The notes beneath the pieces are model-generated. The model was not told where the DNA came from. It was given only the letters and a program-made list of their open reading frames with translations, and made no database searches. A stretch of DNA of 64,000 nucleotides from Planctomycetota bacterium (GTDB lineage Bacteria > Planctomycetota > SZUA-567 > H5-PLA8), in assembly GCA_045863855.1 (NCBI GenBank), contig BTVV01000015.1:16259-80258 (forward strand), in the 5' to 3' direction. Positions 616 to 29,619 of this stretch are shown piece by piece. Numbering within the stretch: position 1 is the first letter of the stretch; the number at the start of each line of letters is the position of its first letter. A program made the position numbers and the translations under genes.

Positions 616-1137
616 TTAGAGATTCAAAAGCCCTGTAACTTTCATGGCCGTTTCAGCAATACGCGCGCTCTTTTTCTGATCGTAGTCGCGCCGCGCTTCG
701 GCCGGCCAGAGTTCGATGCGGTTAAACGCGCCGCAGAACGCCACCTCTTCGCGCATGCCGAGTTGGTCGACCCAGGCGGCGGGCAGGACGAAGCGTCCCT
801 GCTTGTCCGGCTCGATTGGCTCGGCCCCGCCGGAGAGGTGGGCGACCAGTTCGGCCTTCGTTGCCTCGTCCAAATCCTGACGTTGCCGGATGTTGTCGAT
901 GATCGTGTCCAACTGCGTCTGCGTGTAGAGGCGCAGGAAGCCTTCGTCGTTCCAGCGCATCAAGAGGAGCTGGCCTTCGTTGCTCTCTTCGAGCGTCTTC
1001 ATCAAGTTGCGCGGGATTGCGACCTGGTTGCGCCCGGAGACCTTATGGAAGGCCGTGCCGAAGAACGTGGCGCGCCGCGGAGCGGTGGGTCGTTCGTTCG
1101 GAGTAGTCGGCCCTAGTGTGGTCACGGTCGCTCGCAT
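616..1137 (-). CDS. mraZ: division/cell wall cluster transcriptional regulator MraZ
   Basis: FFGTAFHKV..RNQVAIP, DKQGRFVLP and GAFNRIELW (two SpoVT/AbrB repeats); upstream of rsmH. Start uncertain. Confidence 0.9.
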   Translation of the reverse strand: MRATVTTLGPTTPNERPTAPRRATFFGTAFHKVSGRNQVAIPRNLMKTLEESNEGQLLLMRWNDEGFLRLYTQTQLDTIIDNIRQRQDLDEATKAELVAHLSGGAEPIEPDKQGRFVLPAAWVDQLGMREEVAFCGAFNRIELWPAEARRDYDQKKSARIAETAMKVTGLLNL

Positions 1138-1501: not shown

Positions 1502-1972
1502 ATGCGGGCAGATGAGGCTTGCCTTGAGGACTTCGGAGCATACGCTGTGCGTATGTCGCATACGGCGCGCCGGAGCGGCATCGAGCCGGACACCGTGGGG
1601 GTTTCGCGCATGCTTTCCTTCGAACTTCCCAGACCGTCGGGGGCCGAGTGGGATCAACGCGTGTTGAGCGTGCAGCTCACGCCGGCGGGGGCGCCGTTCG
1701 AACTGGAAGTGGTGTTGCAGGGTTCGCTTGCCGCGATGCTGGGCGAGAAGCTCGATAAGCGCGCGGTGCTGCATGTCACGCATTTGACGCCGACCGGCCG
1801 GCGGGGCCGCTTGCGCGCTCAGGTGAGTTTCGAGCGGCTCGAACTGACCGACGAGCCGGATCGAGCGGAGTCGTTGACGCTGATCGTGGATATGGATGCT
1901 CGGAATCTGGACGAGATCCTGCGCTGGCAGGAGAGCGCTCGGATGACGATTACGCGCAGTTTGCGCGCGTAA
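1502..1972 (+). CDS. hypothetical protein
   Basis: 156-aa ORF with protein-like composition, divergent from mraZ; no motif recognised. Confidence 0.55.
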   Translation: MRADEACLEDFGAYAVRMSHTARRSGIEPDTVGVSRMLSFELPRPSGAEWDQRVLSVQLTPAGAPFELEVVLQGSLAAMLGEKLDKRAVLHVTHLTPTGRRGRLRAQVSFERLELTDEPDRAESLTLIVDMDARNLDEILRWQESARMTITRSLRA

Positions 1973-2510
1973 TTTTCCGGCAAGGTTCGTAACTTTCCCC
2001 GTTCTGTTTTCGCACTCGTGCGCCTCTTTTTCGAACGAGCTTTAAGGACTTATGAGCGCGAAAGCGCGGTCTATACCACCTCGCGCACGTCGAGCAAAAA
2101 TTCGATTCTGCTATAAAACTGCCATAAATCGCTGCTGCAAAGCGTATATTTGCACGCAGGTGCTTAGTGTCCGGGCGGCTATGCGCGAGGGGCTGAACGG
2201 GTGCGGGTGGGTTAAAAATTGGAAATTCAAAATTCAAAATTTCGGGCGATTGGCAACATTCCGAAAATAAAGAGGCCGGCGCGTGGCGGCGGAATCGGCG
2301 TGGCTTTCCGTGGCCTTTGGCGTTCGATGGGCAGGGCGGTAAAGAGCAAAGAGTAAAAAGTAAACGTTATGCGTGACGCGCGATAGGCGGGGCGCCGGAC
2401 GGGTTGGGGTACGGGAGACGGTTGACAGGCTCGGTAAAAGGAATAACAACTTGGCGGAGTGGGATTGCAGGGGCGGTAGTGGGCGTGGTTGGCCGGGTAG
2501 CCGGCAGGAA

Positions 2511-2585
2511 TCTGTTTAATGGATGCTGTGGCGGTGGGCGATAGGTCTGAGGTTTGAGCGCGTGCGGATGGTTGGGCGCGGAGCA
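2511..2585 (+). repeat. array repeat copy 1 (module A, truncated)
   Basis: tctgtttaatggatgctgtggcggtgggcgataggtctgaggtttgagcgcgtgcggatggttgggcgcggagca aligns with copies at 6755, 7650, 8531 and 9342. Confidence 0.85.
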
Positions 2586-2674
2586 AGCACGCGGAAATTT
2601 CCCCATGGTACCTTTGTTTCTCGGCTACTTGGCCAGCAAAGGGGAATACACTCGCCGTTGTGGAGATCGTTGTA

Positions 2675-3880
2675 ATGAGAGTACCGGTTAAACCTGAACT
2701 CCTTCGCTGGGCCTGCGCGCGCGCGGGCAAGCCGGAGTCGGCGTTAGCCGAAAAATTTGCTGGCTACGAGGGCTGGTTGGCCGGCAGGAAGCACCCCACG
2801 CTTAAGCAACTCGAAGAGTTCGCACGAGCAACCCGCACGCCCTTCGGTTTCTTTTTCCTACAGGAACCACCGGTCGAGACGATCCCGATACCCGACTTCC
2901 GCACCGTCGGGAGCGAGCGCCTCCAGCACCCTTCGCCCGACTTGCTGGACACCATCTTTCTCTGCCAGCAGCGCCAAGATTGGTATCGCCAAAACGCTTT
3001 GATGCTGGGCGATCCGGCGCTGGACTTCATCGGCTCCGCCACCGTGCGGAGCGATGTCGTCGCTACCGCCGCGCGCATCCGCCGGACCGTCGGGTTCGAC
3101 CTCGACGCCCGAGTCAAAGCGTCCACCTTCCTCGACGCACTCCGCATGACGATCGACGCGGCCGACGAAGCGGGCATACTCGTCATGGTCAGCGGCATCG
3201 TGGGGCACAACTCTCATCGACCGCTCGACACCGCCGAGTTCCGTGGCTTCGCCCTCTGCGACGCCTCTCCCCATTTCGCCCCGCTCGTATTTATCAACGG
3301 CGCCGACACCAAGTCCGGCCAGATGTTCACGCTCGCCCACGAACTGGCTCACCTGTGGCTCGGCGAGTCTGGCGTCTCGGATGTCACCCCCGCCTCGTCC
3401 CTTCCGCAGCGGACTGAGGGCGGAGCCGGCATCGAGCGCTGGTGCAACGCCGTCGCGGCGGAGATGCTCGTTCCCCTCGAGGGCTTCCAACAGGCCTACC
3501 GCCGCCGTGCCGATTTGCGGCCGGAGATGCAGCGCCTCAGCCGGCAATACAAGGTCAGCACGCTGGTCATCCTCCGCAGAATGTTCGACGCCGGCGGCCT
3601 AACCCGCGATGTTTTTCAGGTAGCGTTTGACGCCGAACTCCAGCGCCTCAAATCCGAACTCGCCCGGCGCAAGGCCAAGGGCGGCGGTGGAGACTACTAC
3701 GCGACGACCTCCGTCCGCGTTAGCGAGCGCTTTGCCAAGGCCGTGCTCGCCAGCACCTGGGAGGGTCGCTCCAGCTTCACCGAGGCGTTCCGCCTGCTCG
3801 GCTGCCGCAACGTCAAGACCCTCGAATCCCTCGGCGATCGCCTCGGCATGGCCGCCTACCTTAGTGGTGGGGCCGTCTAA
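2675..3880 (+). CDS. XRE-HTH + ImmA/IrrE family Zn-metallopeptidase
   Basis: N-terminal HTH (LLRWACARAG...PTLKQLEEFA), PIPDFRT, FTLAHELAH (HExxH), ERWCNAVAAEMLVP. Confidence 0.9.
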   Translation: MRVPVKPELLRWACARAGKPESALAEKFAGYEGWLAGRKHPTLKQLEEFARATRTPFGFFFLQEPPVETIPIPDFRTVGSERLQHPSPDLLDTIFLCQQRQDWYRQNALMLGDPALDFIGSATVRSDVVATAARIRRTVGFDLDARVKASTFLDALRMTIDAADEAGILVMVSGIVGHNSHRPLDTAEFRGFALCDASPHFAPLVFINGADTKSGQMFTLAHELAHLWLGESGVSDVTPASSLPQRTEGGAGIERWCNAVAAEMLVPLEGFQQAYRRRADLRPEMQRLSRQYKVSTLVILRRMFDAGGLTRDVFQVAFDAELQRLKSELARRKAKGGGGDYYATTSVRVSERFAKAVLASTWEGRSSFTEAFRLLGCRNVKTLESLGDRLGMAAYLSGGAV

Positions 3881-4383
3881 TGGCCTACCTCCTCGACACC
3901 GGAGTATTCATTGAGGCCAAGCGCCGATTCTACGGTCTGGATTTTGTTCCCGGCTACTGGGACTGGCTCATGCGTGAGGCTAAGTCGGGCACGATCCGCT
4001 CCATCGAAAAGGTCGCCGACGAAATCGGCGCACAGCAGGACGAACTGAGCGCTTGGGCCGCGGCGTTACCGAGTGGATTCTTCCTGCGCCCCGACGCCAC
4101 CTTCAGTACTGCGTTCCAGCAGGTGAGCCAGTGGGCGCTCACCTCAGGTTTCCAACCCGCAGCGTACAACGAGTTCCTTGGAGTAGCCGATTCGTTCCTG
4201 GTCGCACAGGCTCTAGCTGGCCATCACACCGTAGTGACCCTGGAGAAGCCCGCCACGACGCCCAGCAAACGGAAGATCAAAGTCCCTGACGCGTGCGCCG
4301 GCGTCAGCGTCAAATGCATGACGCCTTACGAGGTGATGCGACTGCGGGGCGTACGGTTGGTGCTTGCGGGAGTCGCGACCTAG
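3880..4383 (+). CDS. DUF4411-like PIN-domain protein
   Basis: YLLDTGVFIEA, ADSFLVAQA, VVTLE, KIKVPDAC; TAATG stop/start overlap with the ImmA/IrrE gene. Confidence 0.88.
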   Translation: MAYLLDTGVFIEAKRRFYGLDFVPGYWDWLMREAKSGTIRSIEKVADEIGAQQDELSAWAAALPSGFFLRPDATFSTAFQQVSQWALTSGFQPAAYNEFLGVADSFLVAQALAGHHTVVTLEKPATTPSKRKIKVPDACAGVSVKCMTPYEVMRLRGVRLVLAGVAT

Positions 4384-4568
4384 CGAGAGGACAGTAGAGA
4401 AGTGTTGCGAGTAATCTGGAGCAATCGGCGGGTGGCCACCCGGCAATTGATTTTTGGGCGCTATGGAGCAAAGGCTGTTTTCTTACTCCATGCCGAACCG
4501 CCTGCTAAGCGTAGGGATGCTGGCCCTGGAAGCGACGGTGGCCGTTTTCGGAACCGGCTGAGACCGTG

Positions 4569-5021
4569 ATGACTAAACCGGATTACGACGATCCTGAAGT
4601 TGAGGCGCGCTGGTGCGATGCGCAGCGGAAGGCGGTCGCCGATTACCTGCGTTCTCAGAAACTCAAGCACGGTCGAATCGGGGATGGGCCGGCATGGCAC
4701 GTAGCTCCGCATGTGTCGATCTGGGCCGTGGAGAGCCTGAGCCGGCCCGAATGGATCGGCTGGTGGGCCATCTGTGGCGATCTGCCGACGGATTACCTTT
4801 CTGCAGCCGACGTGGAACCGCCGCAGCATCCCAGGAAAGCCTTGCGCATTTTCGCCGAGAACTGGCTTGGCATTGTGCAGGCCTGGAGGGAAGGGCGAGA
4901 AATCGAGCATACTCGCATCGGCGATCTGAGTTCCCGGAACGAATTAGGACCGTTGCTTGAATCGCGGGCCCGGATGTTAATGACGTGGGCTCAAGACGAT
5001 GCGCTGTGGGAAGAAGCGTGA
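4569..5021 (+). CDS. DUF4826-like protein
   Basis: PAWHVAPHVSIWAVES...IGWWAICGDLPTDY and C-terminal W..DDALWE, recognised from memory of the family. Confidence 0.75.
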   Translation: MTKPDYDDPEVEARWCDAQRKAVADYLRSQKLKHGRIGDGPAWHVAPHVSIWAVESLSRPEWIGWWAICGDLPTDYLSAADVEPPQHPRKALRIFAENWLGIVQAWREGREIEHTRIGDLSSRNELGPLLESRARMLMTWAQDDALWEEA

Positions 5022-5104
5022 CGGTTTATTTGTTGCCGTGGGGGTGGGTTGAGTGCGTGCGGTCGGCTGGGCACGGAGCAGCGCCCACGGCGCTTGCGCC
5101 GGGG
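5022..5104 (+). repeat. array repeat copy 2 (module A with internal deletion)
   Basis: ttgagtgcgtgcggtcggctgggcacggagcagcgcccacggcgcttgcgccgggg; its 3' half matches the 7650 copy. Confidence 0.85.
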
Positions 5105-5144
5105 TCGCCGCTACTGGCCTGGAAGATAGGAAGCTGCATTTCCC

Positions 5145-5402
5145 ATGAGCCCGACCAGTCCACAGAGATTCCCACGATGGAGGCGTATGCTGTTCTTCGG
5201 CGCCGTACTTTTAGGTTTGCCTGTCACCGGCTGGGCGATTGGGGAGCGCAGCTACCTGCTGGCGGTTTTTGCCGGCCTCGCTTCCGTTTTGGCTGTTGCG
5301 TCCAGTATTTCGTCCAAGCGTTGTCCGAATTGTCGGGAGCGATTATTCACCATTAGTTATCCCGCGTCCCATTGTCCGAAGTGCGGAACCTCATATACAT
5401 GA
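5145..5402 (+). CDS. small membrane protein with C-terminal Zn-ribbon
   Basis: Two hydrophobic helices, then CPNC...CPKC. Confidence 0.7.
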   Translation: MSPTSPQRFPRWRRMLFFGAVLLGLPVTGWAIGERSYLLAVFAGLASVLAVASSISSKRCPNCRERLFTISYPASHCPKCGTSYT

Positions 5403-5469
5403 ATTCGAGTAGTCGTTCAGGACTTGCTTTTGAGGGGTGGCCTAATTCAAGCGAGGCGGTTCGACGCGT

Positions 5470-5790
5470 ATGATACTTCCATTGTTCCTGTGCCTTGGGT
5501 TCGCGTGGACCGTGAGCGACGGGCTGCACGATTCGGATGGCGCGCTTGCCGTTTACGCTCCTGCCGAATTGCCCGCACGGACGGTTGAGTCCTTTCGATT
5601 TATCGGCGCGGCCACCACGCTTAGGGAAGTGACCGCCCGACTTGGCGCGCCGGATCAGGATAGGGGCAGCGGACTCTTTGTTTCTGTCTATCGGCTGGCG
5701 GACGGCAGCGAAGTGCTGATCGGTTCAGCCGATGGCGCGCAGGTGCTTTACGTGAGGCATGGTCGGGCTGTTTTGTTTGAGCGGCGATGA
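5470..5790 (+). CDS. small secreted hypothetical protein
   Basis: Hydrophobic N-terminus; TLREVTARLGAPD...GSG motif reminiscent of BamE/BLIP-like folds. Confidence 0.6.
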   Translation: MILPLFLCLGFAWTVSDGLHDSDGALAVYAPAELPARTVESFRFIGAATTLREVTARLGAPDQDRGSGLFVSVYRLADGSEVLIGSADGAQVLYVRHGRAVLFERR

Positions 5791-5805
5791 GACCGTGGTT
5801 TCGCC

Positions 5806-5905
5806 ATGCGGGGGACGGGACGGGCGTGAGAGATGGGGCGCGGCTTTCATGGGGTTGTAAACGCCTGCGGCGCCCCCATCACGGGGTGATGGGGGGCACC
5901 CGGGA
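5806..5905 (+). repeat. array repeat copy 3 (module B only)
   Basis: gagagatggggcgcggctttcatggggttgtaaacgcctgcggcgcccccatcacggggtgatggggggcacccggg at 5828-5904, near-identical to 6894-6969 and 8663-8739. Confidence 0.92.
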
Positions 5906-5948
5906 GCCAAACGCAAGATCACGGCCACCCGCCCTTTGGGAGCGTCCT

Positions 5949-6692
5949 ATGCGTCGAATGATGCACTTCAAGGCAATTACTTGGGTAATTCACTTCCTAA
6001 TGTGTGGGTCGATTTGCGCTGGCGAAGAATCGCCGGTCCATTTCGTTGATCCTGTGCTTTTAGAAGCTTTCAAATCCAAAGTGACCAACGAAAAGGAAAC
6101 AGGGAAGGTCGTCGGAAATATTCATGGACTGCATTATTTATTAGATTTAGAGATTGCCAATAGACTTAATGCGCTTGACCCAGGTGACGGCGATCATGCC
6201 ACGGAATTGTCTCTAGTTTTGGGGCTATGCAGTGAAAAGATTGGGACGCACACCGCAAAGGCGATGATTCGCCATATCAGGCATGTCATGGTGGTTACTA
6301 CCACATACCCCGCATCCAGCAGAGGACTGCCGGAGGCGTTGAGGCCTGCCTTTGACTTATTGGTGAAGCATGCATCGCCCGATCTTGTTTGCTTTTCTAT
6401 CCTTGATTTCATTCATGAAAAGGACGGGCGGGCTATGTTAGATGATACGGAGATGTCCATCGTTCTTGGCAGATTGTGGATGAGAGTAAGCGTGCCCAAC
6501 ATGCCGCCTTGGTTTCCGAAAGAAGAAGTTAACTCGGATGAGATTCGAAAGCAGTCGCTCGAATTACTCCAAAAACGAAAAGTGTACTATGAATCAAAGG
6601 GAAAGGACGAAGCGGAGAATTTAAGGCGCATCACAAAGCTGATTGAAGTCGTATTAAGAACGCCGGTAACGGTCATGGATCTTAAGGAGTGA
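5949..6692 (+). CDS. secreted hypothetical protein, AT-richer than host
   Basis: Signal-peptide-like start (..VIHFLMCGSICA-GEE). ORF track start 5787 runs into the repeat, so 5949/5958 is preferred. Confidence 0.75.
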   Translation: MRRMMHFKAITWVIHFLMCGSICAGEESPVHFVDPVLLEAFKSKVTNEKETGKVVGNIHGLHYLLDLEIANRLNALDPGDGDHATELSLVLGLCSEKIGTHTAKAMIRHIRHVMVVTTTYPASSRGLPEALRPAFDLLVKHASPDLVCFSILDFIHEKDGRAMLDDTEMSIVLGRLWMRVSVPNMPPWFPKEEVNSDEIRKQSLELLQKRKVYYESKGKDEAENLRRITKLIEVVLRTPVTVMDLKE

Positions 6693-6754
6693 CGAGTGGT
6701 GGGTGGCAGTGCGGTTTGCGGTTTACTCGCATAGACGGGAAGCCAGTGGGAACC

Positions 6755-7000
6755 CTTTTTAGGGCTACCGTTGCGGTGGGCGATAGGTTGAAAGTTTGAG
6801 CGCGTGCGGATGGTTGGGCACGGAGCAGCGCCCACGGCGGTTGGTCCGCGGCACCCGGCACTCGGCTGGTGCGGTGGAGTGCGATTCGGGCGGGAGAGAT
6901 GGGGCGCGGCTTTCATGGGGTTGTAAACGCCTGCGGTGCCCCCATCACGGGGTGATGGGGGCACCCGGGAGGTTTGAGCGGGTGCGGGCGTGGCACCCGG
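6755..7000 (+). repeat. array repeat copy 4 (full A+B plus a short A-like tail)
   Basis: Module A, linker, module B with a perfect 14-bp stem (6935-6965), then ggtttgagcgggtgcgggcgtggcacccgg. Confidence 0.92.
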
Positions 7001-7189
7001 TTCTGTCCACGCACCCGACTGAGAAGCGTAACCCGGGGGAATGAATGAGTGTCTGGTCAAAAACGTTCCCCATCGCCATCCATGCTAGGCGTCCTGAAGT
7101 ATTTCCCCGTGTTTGCGGTTGTTTTGATTGCAATGGGCCGCTGCGATCCAGAGACCGGAACCACAAAGTCAAAATCACGGGAGGTCACT

Positions 7190-7627
7190 ATGGATAGTAC
7201 TTATATTCACCCCAAACTTGGCGAACTTTATCCAGAAGATGTCGATTGGCAGACCGACAAGGCTACGGTCCCCTTTAGTAATACACCCATCGAGGTTTGC
7301 TTCGCCAATGGCTCCAAGGACGGACCTTGGCCGGCCGCATTAACAGGTTACGATTGGATTGAATCACACTGGAGTGAAGTGCTCGGATTAATTCAAGATC
7401 AAGCGTTTGATTTCTATAGTCCCTATGCAGACGCTGTCGCTGGCGTACCGGTATTCGCCTCTCCAGAAAAGCTTTGGGGTACCGAGGAGTTACTTTGCGT
7501 AAGAGTGTCTACCAAGGACGATTTCGAGGTAACCCTACGATTTAAATGGCAGGAAAAAGAGGATCCTCATGTGATTACCTTCTACGTCGAAAAGGGGCGA
7601 TGCGAAACACACTCGGTTGATGGATGA
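7190..7627 (+). CDS. hypothetical protein, putative immunity-like (DUF6985/DUF2004-like)
   Basis: GGAGG RBS at 7180-7184; acidic, with C-terminal F.W...DPH.ITFYV.G. Family call tentative; upstream starts (7049/7082) possible. Confidence 0.6.
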   Translation: MDSTYIHPKLGELYPEDVDWQTDKATVPFSNTPIEVCFANGSKDGPWPAALTGYDWIESHWSEVLGLIQDQAFDFYSPYADAVAGVPVFASPEKLWGTEELLCVRVSTKDDFEVTLRFKWQEKEDPHVITFYVEKGRCETHSVDG

Positions 7628-7649
7628 AGATGAGCAGGTTGGTTGAGAC

Positions 7650-7747
7650 CTGTTTAATGAATGGCTAGGCGGTGGATGGTTGGGCGGTGGCTTGAACGCG
7701 TGCGGACGGTTGGGCACGGAGCAGCGCCCACGGCGCTTGCGCCGGGG
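7650..7747 (+). repeat. array repeat copy 5 (module A)
   Basis: ctgtttaatgaatgg...ttgaacgcgtgcggacggttgggcacggagcagcgcccacggcgcttgcgccgggg. Confidence 0.88.
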
Positions 7748-7815
7748 CAATGTGAAAATCGGCCATCCGCTCGAACGCTATATCGAGGCTCGTGCGAGGA
7801 GGTGAAGGGCGCGCC

Positions 7816-8487
7816 ATGTTCAATCGCATCAGGCAGTTCTTCGGCGGTTCTAAAAAGGAGCCGCCGCCGACGAATGAGGAATTCGCCCAGCAGGCGGAGG
7901 CTTGGTACGAGCGGAAGTCGAAGCTCATGGAGGAGATTCTCGGGCGCGAGCACGGGATGGTGATGCACGCGATCATCCCGTATGCGGTGGGCGGGGCGCT
8001 GGACCTTTACTACTATCCGCACGGGGTTCCCGGGACGGGGATCGCGACGAAGGAACTCTCGGAGCTGCCCGGCCAGGGTTCGTCGAACCGCGTCTTTTCG
8101 TGCTACGAACTCGCGATGTTCACGCGCCACGCGTTGAACCTGGATGAAGCCAAGGATGCGTCGACTCCCTTTGGCCGCGCGCACGGAACCATCAATTCGA
8201 TATTAAATATGATCGCTCGGTACAGCGCCACGGCGTCGTTGAACCCGAACGAGACGTGCGAGTTTCCGGCCGAGATGGAGCGCGTGGGCGGGAAGTGCCT
8301 GATCTTCGACGCGTACGGCGTTCCGAGGCCCGAGCCGAAACGCGCCTTTGGCGTGCTGGCTGTGATCGAAGTTTACCGTTCGGAGATGGCGTTTGCGCGC
8401 ACGGAAGGTGGCGCGGCGCTGCTCCAGCGGCTGAAGGACGCCGGGCACTATCCGTACTCGGATTTGGACCGGGAGCCGGTGGCGTGA
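7816..8487 (+). CDS. Suppressor-of-fused (SuFu)-like domain protein
   Basis: GGALDLYYY...IATKELSE...YELAMFT and C-terminal IEVYRSEMAFARTEGGAALLQRLKDAGHYPYSDLDREPV; GAGGAGG RBS. Confidence 0.78.
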   Translation: MFNRIRQFFGGSKKEPPPTNEEFAQQAEAWYERKSKLMEEILGREHGMVMHAIIPYAVGGALDLYYYPHGVPGTGIATKELSELPGQGSSNRVFSCYELAMFTRHALNLDEAKDASTPFGRAHGTINSILNMIARYSATASLNPNETCEFPAEMERVGGKCLIFDAYGVPRPEPKRAFGVLAVIEVYRSEMAFARTEGGAALLQRLKDAGHYPYSDLDREPVA

Positions 8488-8530
8488 GGCCGCGTGGAAG
8501 GGGTAGGGTGGGCGGTGGGCGGTGGGCGTT

Positions 8531-8746
8531 AGTTTCAAGGATGCTGTGGCGGTGGGTGATGGGTTGAAGGTTTAGGCGCGTGCGGTCGGAGAGTCGCGGA
8601 GCAGCGCCGACGGCGCTTGCTCTGTGGCAGTCGGCTGATGCGGTGGGGTGCGATCCGGACGGGAGAGATGGAGCGCGGTTTTCATGGGGTTGTAGACGCC
8701 TGCGGCGCCCCCATCACGGGGTGATGGGGGGCACCCGGGTACCCGG
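8531..8746 (+). repeat. array repeat copy 6 (full A+B)
   Basis: Collinear with 6755-6970 over about 210 nt. Confidence 0.92.
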
Positions 8747-8763
8747 CCTAAGGGCAGTCGTTT

Positions 8764-9288
8764 ATGGGCGAGATTCATCTGGCTTCAAGAGACGGAGATC
8801 TGCAGCGGGTCAAAGAAATACTCGAGCATGATCCCGGTCTCATCGAATCGCGAAATGAGTACGACTATTCGCCTTTGCATTTAGCCGCAGAACGCGGGCG
8901 TACGTCCGTGGTGGAATATCTATTGGACGCAGGAGCAAATGTGAACTGCATCGATTCCGAGAATTATACGAAGACGCCGCTTTTTTTAGCCGCCGAATGT
9001 GGAAGAATTTGCGTCTGCATGATTTTAGTTGCACGCGGCGCCGATGTTAATTGTCGCGAAGAAACTTATAAAACTACACCCTTACACGAGGCGGCACGGT
9101 ATGGATTTTTCGATATTGTTGAATTCTTGATTGAGAGCGGCGCGGACATAAATGCCGTTGACGATGACCATATAAGTACGCCATTGGATTTAGCGGTCGA
9201 AAACAGGCGGGAAAAATCTATCGAGGTGCTGCTTAGGAGGGGTGCCGTAGCGCGCCAGGGCTCTTCGCGCGGCGGTGCGCCGAGTTGA
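8764..9288 (+). CDS. ankyrin repeat protein
   Basis: SPLHLAAERG, TPLFLAAECG, TPLHEAARYG, TPLDLA repeats; AT-richer than host. Confidence 0.93.
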   Translation: MGEIHLASRDGDLQRVKEILEHDPGLIESRNEYDYSPLHLAAERGRTSVVEYLLDAGANVNCIDSENYTKTPLFLAAECGRICVCMILVARGADVNCREETYKTTPLHEAARYGFFDIVEFLIESGADINAVDDDHISTPLDLAVENRREKSIEVLLRRGAVARQGSSRGGAPS

Positions 9289-9341
9289 TTCGAGAGGCGC
9301 GGGTGGCAAGCGCGTTCGTTATGCTGCGGGGGAGGTAGGCG

Positions 9342-9447
9342 TCTGTTTTATGGATGCCGTGGCGGTAGATGATGGGGTGGAGGATTGAGTGCGTGCAGTC
9401 GGCGGGGTACGGAGCAGCGCCCACGACGCTTGCTCTGTGGCACTCGG
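9342..9447 (+). repeat. array repeat copy 7 (module A)
   Basis: tctgttttatggatgccgtggcgg...ggagcagcgcccacgacgcttgctctgtggcactcgg. Confidence 0.88.
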
Positions 9448-9581
9448 CGCGTGACGCGTTTGGGTTCGGCGACGATCGACTGCCGGCGGCGCCGGCCGAC
9501 TCAAGCCGGATTGACTTCTGCTCTTGGCGCTTTCGCGCGGCGGCGTTTCCTCCATACTGTAGGGCAGGCAGGAGGCATCGC

Positions 9582-10145
9582 GTGACGGACGCGCCGGAAG
9601 GGAAGTCCAGCTATACGGGCCTGTGGGTTTTCCTGGGCTTGGCGGGCTATGTCACGGCTTGCGTTGGGGGCATCTACCTCCTCACGGGGGAGATCGTCGC
9701 CGAAAGCGGTTTCAAGGCTCTCGTTGCGGGCACGCTCGGAAGCCTGTTCGCGATCCTTATACTGGGCGCGCTCGCGAGTGCCTTGATTCTGGATCGCTTC
9801 AAGAGCGACCCGGCAGGGCGGGCGCGCGCGGCGATGGCATTGAGCGGCGTGCTGTTGCTCGCGGTGGCGTCCTTCGCCTGGTTCGAATTCCAGCCGCTGG
9901 CTGCGCGAAATCCCAGTTCTTTCTACGGCGCTCCCCAAGCCCGCTACGAAGTCACCTTTGCCTCGGGCGCCCAAGAGATTCGAACCGGCGCGCAGCTCGG
10001 CACTGAAGAGTGGAGCTGGTGGGTGGGGTTCTACTTCTCGATCCTGTTGGTCGGCGGCGCATCGGGCTTGTGGATGTTCGGTTCCAACCTGCTGGCCAGC
10101 TTTCGCATTCCGGAAAGCGCCGGCTCCGTCCCGCCCGATGCGTAG
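9582..10145 (+). CDS. membrane protein (about 4 TM)
   Basis: GGAGG RBS at 9571-9575 before GTG 9582; four hydrophobic segments. Confidence 0.72.
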   Translation: MTDAPEGKSSYTGLWVFLGLAGYVTACVGGIYLLTGEIVAESGFKALVAGTLGSLFAILILGALASALILDRFKSDPAGRARAAMALSGVLLLAVASFAWFEFQPLAARNPSSFYGAPQARYEVTFASGAQEIRTGAQLGTEEWSWWVGFYFSILLVGGASGLWMFGSNLLASFRIPESAGSVPPDA

Positions 10146-10277
10146 GCCCTGAGTTCGGCGTAGCTCGCATGCCTCGGTGCACAGGCGAGCCGAGTCCCGC
10201 GTAACATGGCTGAATAGGTATTGAACGCGCGCGGCGCTTAGATCATGGAATGATGGTTTATTTTCTGGAATGCAATA

Positions 10278-10574
10278 ATGACCATCCAATCTATTATCGT
10301 TCCCGTTTTTTCGTGGATCGTTGTGTTAATGCCGCTCTGGCTTGGTTGGTTTATTGGGAAAAAAGCTTGCATGAAATCGATTAAGAGGCTTTTGCTTCTA
10401 GGTCTGATTCCGATCATTATTTCATCCGTTTTTTTGTCGGTGCATTCCACAGAAGGAGACCCTCACCAGGAGAATGCTTTGGCGGTATTTGTGGTGTTGA
10501 TTTGGCTCGAAACTACTTTTGTTGCCGCCCACTTTTTCAGAACTATGGCAGATCGAAATGCCGTTAAGGATTAA
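10278..10574 (+). CDS. small AT-rich membrane protein (3 TM)
   Basis: Three hydrophobic helices; markedly AT-rich DNA. Confidence 0.62.
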   Translation: MTIQSIIVPVFSWIVVLMPLWLGWFIGKKACMKSIKRLLLLGLIPIIISSVFLSVHSTEGDPHQENALAVFVVLIWLETTFVAAHFFRTMADRNAVKD

Positions 10575-10618: not shown

Positions 10619-10675
10619 CGCGCTTCGCGCGGAAAATTTTTTCACCTCCCCTACCCCTCCTTGGCAAGGAGGGGA
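10619..10675. repeat. REP-like palindrome (CCCCTCCTT-GGC-AAGGAGGGG type), copy 1
   Basis: gcgcttcgcgcgg...cacctcccctacccctccttggcaaggagggga; second copy at 14057-14114. Confidence 0.75.
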
Positions 10676-10761
10676 AAGGCTCGGTCAAAAGCAAAATGCA
10701 ATTGGTGAGACCGCATAGCCGCCGACATGGAGGCTTCGGTCGGACAGTGCGGTTGTGGCGC

Positions 10762-12090
10762 TTACACGGGCAGGTCGAAGAGATCGCGGGCGAGGCGGAG
10801 GATCTCGGGGCGTTGTTCTTTGGGCATGCCGCGGGGAAAGGGGAGTTTGGGGGTTTCGGCGGCTTCGAGGGCCAGCGGTGCGGCGGCGTTGAGCACGCGG
10901 CAGAGCGCCTCGGGGCTGACGGTGCCCAGATGATCGTGCGGGCTGTGGTGCTGCCAGCGCCCGCCGGGGAAATTGCTGCGGTGGTACCAGACGGCCGGGA
11001 CGCCGTAGACGGTGAGCGGGAAGTGGTCGCCGAAGGGCGTGATCGTCACGTGCGGGCGGACTTCGAGGCCGGCTTGGGCGAGTCGTTCGACGGCCCAGCG
11101 CCCGACGGCGGGGGCTCCGGCGATGAGCAGATCGGTATGCCCCAGGGCGGAGGAGAGGGAATCGAAGTTGAAGAGGAGCGCGTGGGCGTTCATCTCGCGG
11201 CGGTGCTTGAGGACGTAATGCTTGGCTCCGACGCTGAGCTGTTCTTCGGTCCCGAACGAGATGAAGCGCAGTCCGCGGCGGGTGGGCTTCTTGCGCGCGC
11301 GCAGCGCGAGCACTCGGGCGAGCGCCAATAGGCTGACCGTACCGCTGGCGTTGTCGTCGGCTCCGGGGTTGCCGAGCTGTGTATCGTAGTGGCAGCCGAA
11401 AGCGACCATCCCGGCCTTCGGATCGCGCCCGGGCCAGTCGGCGACGACGTTGTAGCTCACCGCATCGACCACTTCGGTCCGCACGCAGGCGCGCACGCGC
11501 TTCACGCCGTCGATGCGCCATTGGTAGGCGCTGCGGTAGGCGACGCCGACCGTGGGGCGCGCTCCGTGAAGGCGGACCCATTCGGGCAGGAGCCCGTCGG
11601 CCTTGGGCCACTCCATGGGCAGGCGGTCGTCGACCCACAAAATCACTTCGGCTCCGCTGCGCACGAGCTTGCGGTGCCCGTCGGTATCGGTGCTGAGGGG
11701 GCCGAAGACGAGGAGCGCTTTGCCTTTGAGGCTTCCGGGCTTGAGGCGTTCTTTCTGATCGGGGAGTTCGAGCCAGACGAGTTCGCGTTCTACGGGGCGG
11801 TCGGCGGGCGTGGTGGAGGGGCTTCCGGCGAGGACCGAGCAGGGGACGCGGACCCAGCGTTTGCCGTGTGGGATTTCGATGCGCGCTTCGGCGCGTTTGA
11901 GCATGCGGCAGGGGAAGGCTTCGAGTCGCACGTCGGCGCAGCCCAGGCGGCGGTACTGTTCGAGGAGGTATTCGGCGGCGCGGTGTTCGGCGGCGCTTCC
12001 GGCGCGGCGTTCGCCGATGGCGTTGCAAAGCATTTCCCAATGCGGGAGCAGATGCTGAGGGCGGATGGGGGGCAGGACGGCACTGGCCAT
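10762..12090 (-). CDS. M28 family metallopeptidase
   Basis: GCHYDT, GADDNASG, GTEEQ, NFDS, GDH and HHSPHD motifs. Confidence 0.9.
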   Translation of the reverse strand: MASAVLPPIRPQHLLPHWEMLCNAIGERRAGSAAEHRAAEYLLEQYRRLGCADVRLEAFPCRMLKRAEARIEIPHGKRWVRVPCSVLAGSPSTTPADRPVERELVWLELPDQKERLKPGSLKGKALLVFGPLSTDTDGHRKLVRSGAEVILWVDDRLPMEWPKADGLLPEWVRLHGARPTVGVAYRSAYQWRIDGVKRVRACVRTEVVDAVSYNVVADWPGRDPKAGMVAFGCHYDTQLGNPGADDNASGTVSLLALARVLALRARKKPTRRGLRFISFGTEEQLSVGAKHYVLKHRREMNAHALLFNFDSLSSALGHTDLLIAGAPAVGRWAVERLAQAGLEVRPHVTITPFGDHFPLTVYGVPAVWYHRSNFPGGRWQHHSPHDHLGTVSPEALCRVLNAAAPLALEAAETPKLPFPRGMPKEQRPEILRLARDLFDLPV

Positions 12091-14056: not shown

Positions 14057-14114
14057 GCGCTTCGCGCGGTTGGTTCTGCTCACCTCTCCTTGCCCCACCT
14101 TGGCAAGGAGGGGA
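14057..14114. repeat. REP-like palindrome, copy 2
   Basis: gcgcttcgcgcgg...cacctctccttgccccaccttggcaaggagggga. Confidence 0.72.
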
Positions 14115-14226
14115 GACGGCGAGGTCCGAGGCAAGACTTCGTAAGACGGTTGCTCTCACCGCTTGACCTGAATCGTCTCTGCCGCGAGCTTATTCCCGGG
14201 AGCCTGAGCGCTCCCGGGAGGCTCGC

Positions 14227-16663: not shown

Positions 16664-16775
16664 GGCCGGTGTGCCGGCTGCCGCTAGATGACCTGCGGGC
16701 GAGACGCCTGCGATACCTGGGCCGGTGTGCCGGCTGCCGCTGCATGACCTGCGGGCGAGACGCCCGCGATACCTG
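16664..16775 (+). repeat. tandem 2 x 56-bp repeat containing a REP hairpin
   Basis: 16664-16719 and 16720-16775 differ at 3 positions; core GCGGGCG-AGA-CGCCCGC. Confidence 0.9.
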
Positions 16776-28378: not shown

Positions 28379-29058
28379 CGCTCCCATGCCAGAGTCGGCG
28401 GCAGGCCGAAGGCCGGGGCGAGGCTGCGGAAGACCATGGCGTGGCCGACGGCGTTCGTGTGCACCGCGTCGGCCATCAGTTCCGGCATGCGTAATTCGCC
28501 GGCGGCTTCCAGCGCGCACCAATGCGCGTAGACGTCCACGAAGGGCAGCTCGCGCCGGGCGGCCAGTTCGCGAATCTGTTCCACGCGGCGCTTGAGCTTG
28601 TGGTCTTCCTTCCAGATGTGCCCCGGTTCGGGTTTGAACTCTAGGATCGGCGTGGGCGTGCGCAGCAGGACGCCGCAGGAGAGGGCTTGGAGGCGGTCGA
28701 CGATTTCGGCGAGGCCCTCCGCGAATTCGGCGTCGTCGAGCTTGTTGGCGTCGTTGCTGCCGAAACAGACGATGGCCAGCGTGGGCATGAAGCGGGCGAC
28801 ATCGGTGTGCCAGCGTTGGAGCGCGTTGTGGACGGTGTCGCCGCTGATGCCGCTGTTGACGAGCAGGATTTTCTGGGTCTGGTAACGGTCGCGCAGTTCG
28901 CTGTGCAGCAGTTCGGGCCATTGCTTGGCGCCGCGCGTGAAGCCGGTGTTGCAGGTGTTGGAGTCGCCCAGCGCCAGCAGCAGGGCGTGCTTGCCTTCGC
29001 GCAGCCAGGCGCCGAACGCGGCGAGGGACTCGGTGCGCTGCATGAAGGGGTGGCTCAT
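28375..29058 (-). CDS. SGNH/GDSL hydrolase
   Basis: LGDSNT, NSGISG, FGSND, DAVH. Confidence 0.9.
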   Translation of the reverse strand: MSHPFMQRTESLAAFGAWLREGKHALLLALGDSNTCNTGFTRGAKQWPELLHSELRDRYQTQKILLVNSGISGDTVHNALQRWHTDVARFMPTLAIVCFGSNDANKLDDAEFAEGLAEIVDRLQALSCGVLLRTPTPILEFKPEPGHIWKEDHKLKRRVEQIRELAARRELPFVDVYAHWCALEAAGELRMPELMADAVHTNAVGHAMVFRSLAPAFGLPPTLAWER

Positions 29059-29393
29059 GGCGTGTTCCTGGCGCGCCGGGTGCGCTTGCGCGAGGCCTTG
29101 CCCAGCCGCTTGTGTAACTCCACGGGATCGCGCATACCGTGAAAGACGCTCACCACGACCAGATGCTCCCGAGTTGGATAATAGTAGACGCCATACCTCG
29201 AGAATTTCCTCAGCCGTTGCTTGCGGATTGGGCCTTCCACTTTGGGAAAGCTATTCGGAGTGGCCGCCGCTTCCAGGACACAGGCATCCAGTTCATGCGG
29301 AAATTGAGCGGCCAGTTTCGTGTCTTGGCCCAGGTACCAGTCGCGAGCTTCGCAGGCATCCTGTAGCGCGGCAGGCAGCCAATGTATGACCAT
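29055..29393 (-). CDS. RelE/ParE family toxin
   Basis: W.P.A..D..EA..WY and LRKFSRYGVYY...VVVSVFHGMRDP. Confidence 0.85.
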   Translation of the reverse strand: MVIHWLPAALQDACEARDWYLGQDTKLAAQFPHELDACVLEAAATPNSFPKVEGPIRKQRLRKFSRYGVYYYPTREHLVVVSVFHGMRDPVELHKRLGKASRKRTRRARNTP

Positions 29394-29394
29394 G

Positions 29395-29619
29395 TTAACG
29401 TTTGTGGCGCAGCTTATTCATGGCCTGCTCGTGCGGAATCACATCGGCGGGGTGCTTGCGGTAGGCTTTGAGTCTCCTTCTAAGCTCCACTCGCTGTGCC
29501 TGGGCCGGCCCATCCTCCGCGCATTCGGTCTTCACGCGGGCCAAGATCTCTTGCGCCAACCGCTTCTGATCCCCAAGGCTCAGCATAAGCGCCTGTTGCA
29601 GCACCGCTTGCCGGGTCAT
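29395..29619 (-). CDS. addiction-module antitoxin
   Basis: VLQQALMLS..QKRLAQEI and ELRRRLKAY...IPHEQA; directly upstream of the toxin. Confidence 0.8.
   Translation of the reverse strand: MTRQAVLQQALMLSLGDQKRLAQEILARVKTECAEDGPAQAQRVELRRRLKAYRKHPADVIPHEQAMNKLRHKR

Follow-up and report, generated by a model that had tools for sequence, protein, structure and literature searches.

The array between mraZ and the M28 peptidase gene

The window considered here is a stretch of 64,000 nucleotides (nt) from contig C15 (BTVV01000015.1, positions 16,259 to 80,258) of the Planctomycetota bacterium assembly GCA_045863855.1, our source genome (G000; 6.9 Mb, 64% GC, 287 contigs, 94% complete). Between mraZ and an M28 peptidase gene it carries an array of genes punctuated by short repeats, which are transposon ends of the RAYT (TnpA-REP) kind. 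Two congeners (G001 and G002) and two further relatives (G012 and G004) served for comparison; none of the statements made here depends on the unpublished genome G017.

An initial annotation of this DNA described ten open reading frames (ORFs) in the array, all on the plus strand. The ORF list combined with a Pfam scan gives 11 between 2675 and 10574, and every one is indeed on the plus strand. The abrupt switches in composition that it pointed out are also evident: against a genome median GC content of 0.65, the four ORFs named as AT-rich stand at 0.47 (5949-6692), 0.48 (7190-7627), 0.51 (8764-9288) and 0.43 (10278-10574), and the two named as richer at 0.62 (7816-8487) and 0.64 (9582-10145). 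Overall, four array ORFs lie at 0.43-0.51, one at 0.55 and the rest at 0.60-0.65. Repeats do separate most ORFs, as proposed, although 3/10 intergenic spacers are without a full repeat and two of those three hold only an end stub. The features are as follows.

616..1137, minus strand: mraZ, conserved left flank (Pfam MraZ; present in 41/41 genomes searched)
1502..1972, plus: 156-aa ORF just 5' of the leader, function not assigned (no Pfam/NCBIfam match)
2021..2190, plus: leader L, fixed 5' anchor, with two tandem TGCTATAAA-like boxes (repeat search)
2419..2469, plus: promoter-like box, TTGACA, 16 nt, TAACAA, common to the C3 and C51 arrays and G002
2495..2612, plus: left-end-like stub, then repeat A copy 1 (RAYT 3' end and decayed hairpin)
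2675..3880, plus: IrrE/ImmA-type M78 metallopeptidase protein, host-like GC 0.65 (PF06114)
3880..4383, plus: DUF4411 protein (PF14367), paired with the M78 gene as a two-gene unit, no repeat between
4427..4444, plus: palindromic stub, outer left foot joined to outer right foot, interior lost (sequence)
4569..5021, plus: DUF4826 gene (Pfam), 89% identical to a G002 gene elsewhere in the same array
5040..5116, plus: repeat A copy 2, truncated 5'
5145..5402, plus: 85-aa hydrophobic ORF with a C-terminal zinc-ribbon-like motif (zinc-ribbon matches sub-threshold only)
5435..5442, plus: left-foot stub past the stop codon
5470..5790, plus: 106-aa ORF, no family
5828..5933, plus: repeat B copy 1 (right end of a second RAYT family) and A-type outer foot
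5949..6692, plus: 247-aa low-GC ORF, no family (no Pfam/NCBIfam match)
6701..6967, plus: composite spacer of left-foot stub, A copy 3 (6757-6855) and B copy 2 (6892-6967)
7190..7627, plus: DUF6985-like low-GC gene (weak PF22481), frame open back to 7049
7652..7770, plus: repeat A copy 4, outer foot degenerate
7816..8487, plus: SuFu-like gene, host-like GC (PF05076, E 8.7e-5, below cut-off)
8532..8738, plus: composite spacer of A copy 5 (8532-8631) and B copy 3 (8661-8738)
8764..9288, plus: ankyrin-repeat gene, low GC (Pfam scan)
9299..9444, plus: left-foot stub and repeat A copy 6
9582..10145, plus: 187-aa hydrophobic ORF, host-like GC, no family
10278..10574, plus: 98-aa hydrophobic low-GC ORF, final array gene
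10762..12090, minus: M28 peptidase, conserved right flank (Pfam; comparison with relatives)

In outline the array resembles a run of integron cassettes, and the initial annotation had already remarked that integrase and attC sites were missing. This holds: the best IntI score in the genome is 75 bits against a cut-off of 265, and our own pattern-and-fold scan, which recovers two attC-like sites on contig C3 as a positive control, gives a sole match that sits inside the M78 gene and none between ORFs. Could transposons nevertheless have inserted over the attC sites of a former integron array and so erased them, leaving the leader as what remains of an attI/Pc region? Contig C3 (L332:1329-3530) speaks for such a history: behind the same leader and a duplicated promoter-like box come two attC-like cassettes, and an A-type end cuts off a third site. 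The window spacers, however, hold no attC-like site or core remnant, a model built from the C3 sites gives two matches in the genome plus 39 fetched stretches, and the site in G002 that is orthologous to the C3 locus is occupied by right-end units. In 17/17 family genomes no IntI was found at E <= 1e-40, a search with no positive control that is not proof of absence. We regard a decayed integron as very improbable.

Several products of the region stand apart from known families. The 1502-1972 ORF aligns in G002 but not in G001, and its protein has no relative in a metagenome scan. For the 5949-6692 protein the Atlas yielded no family, the first match (0.84) being a lead only. The DUF6985-like gene has no homologue in 300 other genomes of the phylum, and 21 of its 27 homologues carry PF22481. 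An Rfam scan returned one chance snoRNA match and nothing relevant. Promoter and terminator scans stayed at chance level, and the putative promoter at 2419-2469 was missed by the consensus promoter scan. Elsewhere in the window, at 29055-29619 on the minus strand, lies a two-gene pair of slightly low GC that by eye looks like a RelE/ParE-type addiction module.

The repeats as transposon ends

The initial annotation recognized one repeat family in seven co-oriented copies. Copies do occur at all seven places in a single orientation and nowhere else in the window, but they belong to two unrelated families. Family A has six copies of about 100 nt (2511, 5022, 6755, 7650, 8531 and 9342) and family B three of about 75 nt (~5828, ~6892 and ~8661), the latter two fused behind A; the composite spacers at 8532 and 6757 share 81% identity over 214 nt. 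The two families also differ in their distribution over the genome. With nhmmer, A gives 36 matches, six of them inside the window, and is thus not local, whereas the three B matches are all at the array.

Both families align to the ends of RAYT elements. All six A copies in the window match the final 100 nt of an internally deleted G002 element at 73-77%, which indicates that A is a RAYT 3' end. This deleted element reads in one frame as a RAYT start followed by a RAYT end, and a search with the RAYT of contig C13 matched short G002 pieces overlapping A copies. By these alignments A is made up of the final ~20 codons of the transposase, followed by a hairpin with GGCACCC at its end and by the outer foot GGCCACCCGCC. 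The three B copies align to the ends of a full G001 RAYT element at 78-82%. We therefore identify both repeats, from sequence, as right ends of RAYT (TnpA-REP, HUH) transposons belonging to two different elements, in agreement with the earlier suggestion of REP-like repeats tied to a RAYT-type HUH enzyme.

The hairpin foot is GTGC or GTGG, accompanied by a second outer foot. A GTGG foot is reported for marginal RAYT groups in the available part of PMC6006769, and GTGC does not occur in the accessible part of PMC3733652. In the window the A hairpins have decayed, folding no better than shuffled sequences (z +0.5 to -1.3 in 6/6), while in those of B a stem of 10 pairs survives (z -1.7 to -3.5). 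Behind several stop codons in the window there are short left-end stubs. Inverted repeat pairs exist on contigs C5, C189 and C259; the window copies are unpaired right ends. The window array is old and partly decayed. Two further end families, R (20 matches in the genome) and D (28), share the design of A and B. Viral contigs gave 0 matches to the right-end pattern.

RAYT genes in this genome and its relatives

A RAYT gene flanked by its cognate ends, which the initial annotation proposed to look for, does exist in G000, as one full gene on contig C13; its ends are of type R rather than the A and B of the window, and the window itself holds none. This protein scores 64 bits against the NCBIfam RAYT model NF047646 (cut-off 80), and those of relatives 104, 85 and 88; HVH and the tyrosine at the catalytic position are invariant in 9/9 aligned RAYT proteins. 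The C13 protein is the one intact enzyme of the clade that the assembly yielded, and it belongs to a sister end family.

Recent movement is visible in G001. Ten full B-type elements (L145-L152, L291) of 775-884 nt are 92.8-98.6% identical to one another, with CG at both junctions in 10/10. These are whole REPtrons moving like insertion sequences. For three of the ten the left target could be recognized as a known repeat, which in no case (0/3) continues beyond the right end. The RAYT clade spans records from Planctomycetota, Acidobacteriota and Armatimonadota, its best named relatives being mostly Planctomycetota, and the same feet recur at 80 loci of the clade from other lineages (a set not de-duplicated against the genomes named here). 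A separate IS200-like Y1 gene (L019, C66) has its own hairpin family with 16 matches, and lies directly behind a leader in G002 (L102).

Foreign genes start behind right ends

We next consider the genes that neighbor these ends, since the repeats had been predicted to be tied to foreign ORFs rather than scattered evenly. They are so tied. A 500-nt flank with GC <= 0.55 accompanies 28/36 A matches (23/30 off this contig) and 15/20 of the sister family R, compared with a baseline of 10% of 1632 intergenic regions and with 4/43 and 0/21 for two control repeat families. Seen from the genes, as called by our own simple caller, an A, R, D or B end is no more than 300 nt away for 34 of the 152 with low GC (<= 0.52), compared with 29 of the 4842 typical ones. 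Both control families occur in the window and have no low-GC link: the first is an unrelated palindromic family (10619-10680 and 14085-14115; 43 matches), the second a tandem 56-nt repeat (16664-16775, 95% identical, one unit in G002; 21 matches).

The association is polar, in that foreign genes begin directly downstream of right ends and share their strand. Behind 24 A right ends a low-GC gene starts on the same strand in 13 cases and an opposite-strand gene lies in two, with neither in nine, while 3240 control positions gave 224, 206 and 2810, respectively (Fisher p 0.008 for direction). A rougher count over three genomes, used as support only and made with a classifier that wrongly called four A right ends left ends and assigned six D ends to neither side, places a gene start behind 36/45 right ends and a gene end behind 3/45. 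In G002, arrays hold up to eight gene units behind ends.

Turnover of the locus

The initial annotation anticipated gain, loss and reordering of units between mraZ and the peptidase gene, and the comparison with relatives bears this out. In G002, where core DNA is 92-95% identical, the interval spans 3.9 kb versus 8.6 kb here and reads leader, unrelated ORF, SuFu-like gene, A, another ORF, A, DUF4826 and one further ORF. The congener thus keeps the leader and two of the 11 genes with their order reversed, the SuFu-like protein (89% identical) being placed ahead of DUF4826, which is flanked there on each side by a 126-nt repeat of another family, the two copies being 96% identical. The nine other array ORFs have no long match in G002 among the 40 of 113 candidates that were scored. 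In G001, G012 and G004 the site is empty, with mraZ 0.3-0.7 kb from the peptidase gene, and in four other relatives this neighborhood is absent from the stretch examined.

The spacers behave differently from the genes. In a comparison that took in all of G000 and 30 stretches of G002, six of the seven repeat-bearing window spacers are most similar to sequence elsewhere in the array, and the remaining one to the G002 orthologue. Furthermore, one 5' junction is common to 7/42 A copies, of which five belong to this array and two to its counterpart in G002. Since the best matches lie within the array and this junction is specific to the locus, the spacers were evidently copied in place while the genes changed. 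Composite spacers that include non-transposon sequence have likewise been copied whole between unrelated genes, at 84-96% identity.

The leader

The 170-nt leader at 2021-2190 was overlooked in the initial annotation. It has 27 matches in G000 and at least 20 copies in G002, while a search of 39 further relatives gave none. The G002 copy at the same place is 93% identical to that of the window. Set against orthologous G000 contigs, 15 of 20 G002 copies align into or through the leader and then break, four meet a contig end and one is absent from G000. GC is lower downstream of the leader in 19/20 G002 copies, and A, R or C ends lie downstream in 16/20 and upstream in 0/20. In G000 itself, where several copies are at contig ends, 5/27 have a low-GC flank within 580 nt. 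An extended -10-like box of the TGnTAT type is present in 24/27 copies.

Many leaders are preceded by a perfect 16-nt palindrome that we take to be the parS consensus (15 sites in G000; 13 in G002, eight directly before a leader). Three palindrome sites and a diverged leader copy adjoin parB on C2; the window leader is without a palindrome, and G001 has none at one mismatch. Genome-wide, the palindromes mostly lie 30-150 nt before leaders (C2, C26, C38, C52, C58, C79, C82, C154, C236). The leader region matches no plasmid or phage, and its pattern in metagenomes recovers one 1.35-kb contig. That the leader might be an integrase attachment arm was considered and left unconfirmed: no tyrosine recombinase or tRNA lies near any of the 27 copies, and six loci tested contain no full tRNA gene. 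A second leader family with GTGTAAA/GTATAC-like boxes heads other arrays (C13:53770-54083, C27:2956-3285, C149:8974-9295, C168:10135-10383; L106, L142, L143).

The cargo and its possible link to toxin-immunity modules

The initial annotation described the cargo as immunity-like, a character that few of the genes show in profile searches. The window array comprises M78 with DUF4411, DUF4826, DUF6985-like, SuFu-like (below cut-off) and ankyrin genes, and five ORFs without a family; PADLOC returns only generic M78 and ankyrin matches. In a set of 41 array genes from G001 and G002, from which one doubtful ORF was dropped and to which one SMI1-looking ORF was added by hand, 34 have no Pfam match and seven have any. 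Three are of immunity type (two weak SMI1/KNR4 and one ankyrin), one of these being the hand-added ORF. An immunity function of the cargo is weakly supported.

An alternative origin deserves consideration here. Transposons may have landed near the 3' ends of Rhs toxin genes, the toxin being then deleted and the immunity gene kept, so that deletion and RecA would have built orphan stores with no capture machinery at all. Rhs core fragments with partner genes do occur in G000, G001 and G002. Behind Rhs-partner pairs on C88, C186 and C163 there is a tail sequence that also follows genes of G002 arrays and continues, by way of a direct repeat spaced at 11 bp, into the 3' half of tRNA-Arg(CCT) (L105:7114-7400, L141, L097, L020:2420-2680); from its sequence this half appears to be an att-like remnant, a stray from the tRNA gene on C173. 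In addition, SMI1/KNR4 proteins and a shared N-terminal membrane motif are found behind Rhs and behind right ends alike. Since many G002 units end in the tail seen behind Rhs-partner pairs, part of the cargo probably comes from toxin-immunity modules. As an account of the arrays as a whole, erosion of Rhs modules is nonetheless rather unlikely, given how few array genes are of immunity type or match Pfam at all. The window has no Rhs fragment and no Rhs-partner tail, contig C15 has no TIGR03696 match, and no recognizable toxin gene lies upstream of distant homologues of DUF4826 (4/4) or SuFu (4/7 flanks viewed). Small proteins with a shared hydrophobic N-terminal motif recur on C200, C124, C189, C27, C117 and C71 and in L145 and L148, with no Pfam family for those scanned.

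How the arrays may have formed

We propose that polar gene accretion on RAYT ends has produced many arrays, this region among them, in which right ends become fused to gene starts, selection keeps suitable fusions, and recombination between spacers adds, removes and reorders units. We give this reading a probability of roughly 55%. In a first step, an HUH transposase would cut single-stranded DNA at the CG beside an element end and join the right end to other DNA; selection would retain joints just before a gene start, and flanks would be trimmed to coding sequence. Gene-plus-spacer units would then be excised, duplicated and re-inserted by recombination between spacers, whether through RAYT strand transfer or through RecA acting on 100-400 nt of shared sequence. 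The leader would provide the promoter, and the cargo would be mixed foreign genes, including some orphan immunity genes from Rhs toxin modules. According to the parts available of PMC3333891 and PMC8266576, TnpA-REP cuts single-stranded REP DNA at dinucleotides flanking the hairpin and exchanges strands between such sites, and sequestration of flanking genes by it has been proposed. This chemistry fits the CG junctions and the three full elements with a non-continuing right flank.

A more ambitious version can be envisaged only tentatively. In it the arrays would form a dedicated HUH analogue of the integron, where the RAYT captures single foreign genes behind right ends and shuffles gene-plus-spacer circles among at least twenty arrays, each headed by a leader that would have been copied out of the parS-parB region and would serve as fixed entry site and promoter.

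Several observations weigh against accretion on RAYT ends. No full A- or B-type RAYT was found in this assembly, at 94% completeness and in 287 contigs. The 24 sequencing runs listed for the region include none of RNA. Sequencing reads from four runs holding part of the region, with short and low-depth contigs, contain no excised circle, and of the rearrangement joints in these reads (three in one run, with sides of 22-31 letters) none is trusted at a repeat end. Breakpoints had been expected at the repeats; in the sole precisely mapped pair, DUF4826, the G000/G002 homology spans ATG to stop, so that the breakpoints fall at gene borders. No gene was seen at two loci with an identical junction; of the cargo pairs found between genomes, two have ends next to them, the first a same-locus pair and the second 67% identical. 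Tree support for a local A clade is weak (84/62). As to the link with foreign genes, 118/152 low-GC genes have no nearby end, nine of the 24 right ends are not followed by the start of a low-GC gene, and clustering of the copies makes the counts non-independent. At the 66 scorable loci from other lineages, GC lower by 5 points is found downstream in 19 and upstream in 13 (p 0.056). Finally, the hairpin family of the IS200-like gene, which belongs to a different Y1 class, also favors the islands (7/16), as passive accumulation would predict.

Under passive accumulation, foreign genes would reach tolerant hot spots by other routes and non-autonomous RAYT derivatives (REPIN/MITE-like) would hop in later, oriented by transcription or replication, so that the repeats mark islands and move no genes. 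Such a scenario accommodates not only the presence of several Y1 families in the same islands, the breakpoints at gene borders and the weak link between ends and low GC outside the genus, but also the several spacers that read as a left-foot stub plus a right end, that is, as a mini-element, and the variable gaps between G000 and G002 that hold no such ends. It fares less well with the two other repeat families of the genome, which avoid the islands, with the reversal of gene order between congeners, and with the failure of the right flank to resume the left target in all three checkable full elements. Composite spacers, including ones with the Rhs-partner tail, were moreover copied whole and are therefore not explained by simple end-to-end hopping. 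On balance we consider passive accumulation unlikely and favor accretion on RAYT ends.

Comparison with known systems

The repeats belong to the REPtron kind, and the array works like an integron or a rAID cluster while falling outside the definition of either. In REPtrons, as far as the consulted parts of PMC3333891, PMC8266576, PMC6006769 and bioRxiv 119735 describe them, an HUH Y1 gene lies between inverted hairpins with a conserved foot, and there are dispersed non-autonomous copies, inverted pairs, a dinucleotide junction and proposed gene sequestration, all as here. The typical foot in those sections is GTAG, that of the present ends GTGC/GTGG with a second outer foot; the dispersed copies of the present families retain the transposase 3' end, and each end in the polar arrays is followed by one foreign gene. 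According to the same parts, the REPtrons of E. coli do not move as units, whereas the G001 elements are multicopy. The TIRtrons/TIRYTs of Acidobacteria and other phyla are similar in having RAYT-like genes bounded by inverted ends, with no cargo arrays or leader described in the portion of PMC3733652 at hand. Prochlorosin clusters (bioRxiv 2020.03.09.984088) contain C-terminal TnpA-REP fragments amid variable genes at a conserved distance. There, however, one paralogous family faces the transposase, while here unrelated genes follow on the same strand; a diversifying role for TnpA-REP was proposed, with causality later described by the authors as unsupported either way (bioRxiv 2020.03.09.984088).

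Among gene-stockpiling systems, integrons and CALINs (PMC4889954, in the part consulted) likewise have co-oriented single-gene units between repeats, a fixed 5' anchor and turnover. They differ from the present arrays, in which no IntI or attC was found, the repeats are transposon ends upstream of genes, and about twenty or more arrays occur per genome. The rAID-1 clusters of Bacteroidales, from the portion of bioRxiv 471110 that we consulted, share co-directional low-GC genes (4/11 here at GC <= 0.52), a repeated intergenic sequence and some immunity-like cargo. These have a 5' XerD-like recombinase, and none was found here: no contig with a leader copy holds any of the 18 tyrosine recombinase matches in the genome. 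In contrast to Rhs orphan toxin-immunity modules, which exist elsewhere in the genome, the genes of the window have no Rhs core ahead of them. We found no description in the literature of arrays that start from a leader and place unrelated genes behind the right ends of RAYT elements, the supplements of PMC3333891, PMC3733652 and PMC6006769, which may list ends or captures, being outside the search.

The host benefit of RAYT/REP systems is treated as an open question in the sections seen of bioRxiv 119735 and bioRxiv 2024.07.17.603846. This lineage offers a testable case: several end families have intact RAYTs, among them C13 in G000, the B type of G001 and a D type in G002, the ends are precise with CG at the junction, and there are recent multicopy elements. 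Its arrays, invisible to integron finders, hold about a fifth of the genome's low-GC genes (34/152). If HUH capture is true, RAYT enzymes would have a host-level function, and an enzyme that moves genes would amount to a second chemistry for integron-like stockpiling and possibly a programmable single-strand recombinase. If the enzyme does not move genes, transposon debris would still be seen to organize an accessory genome.

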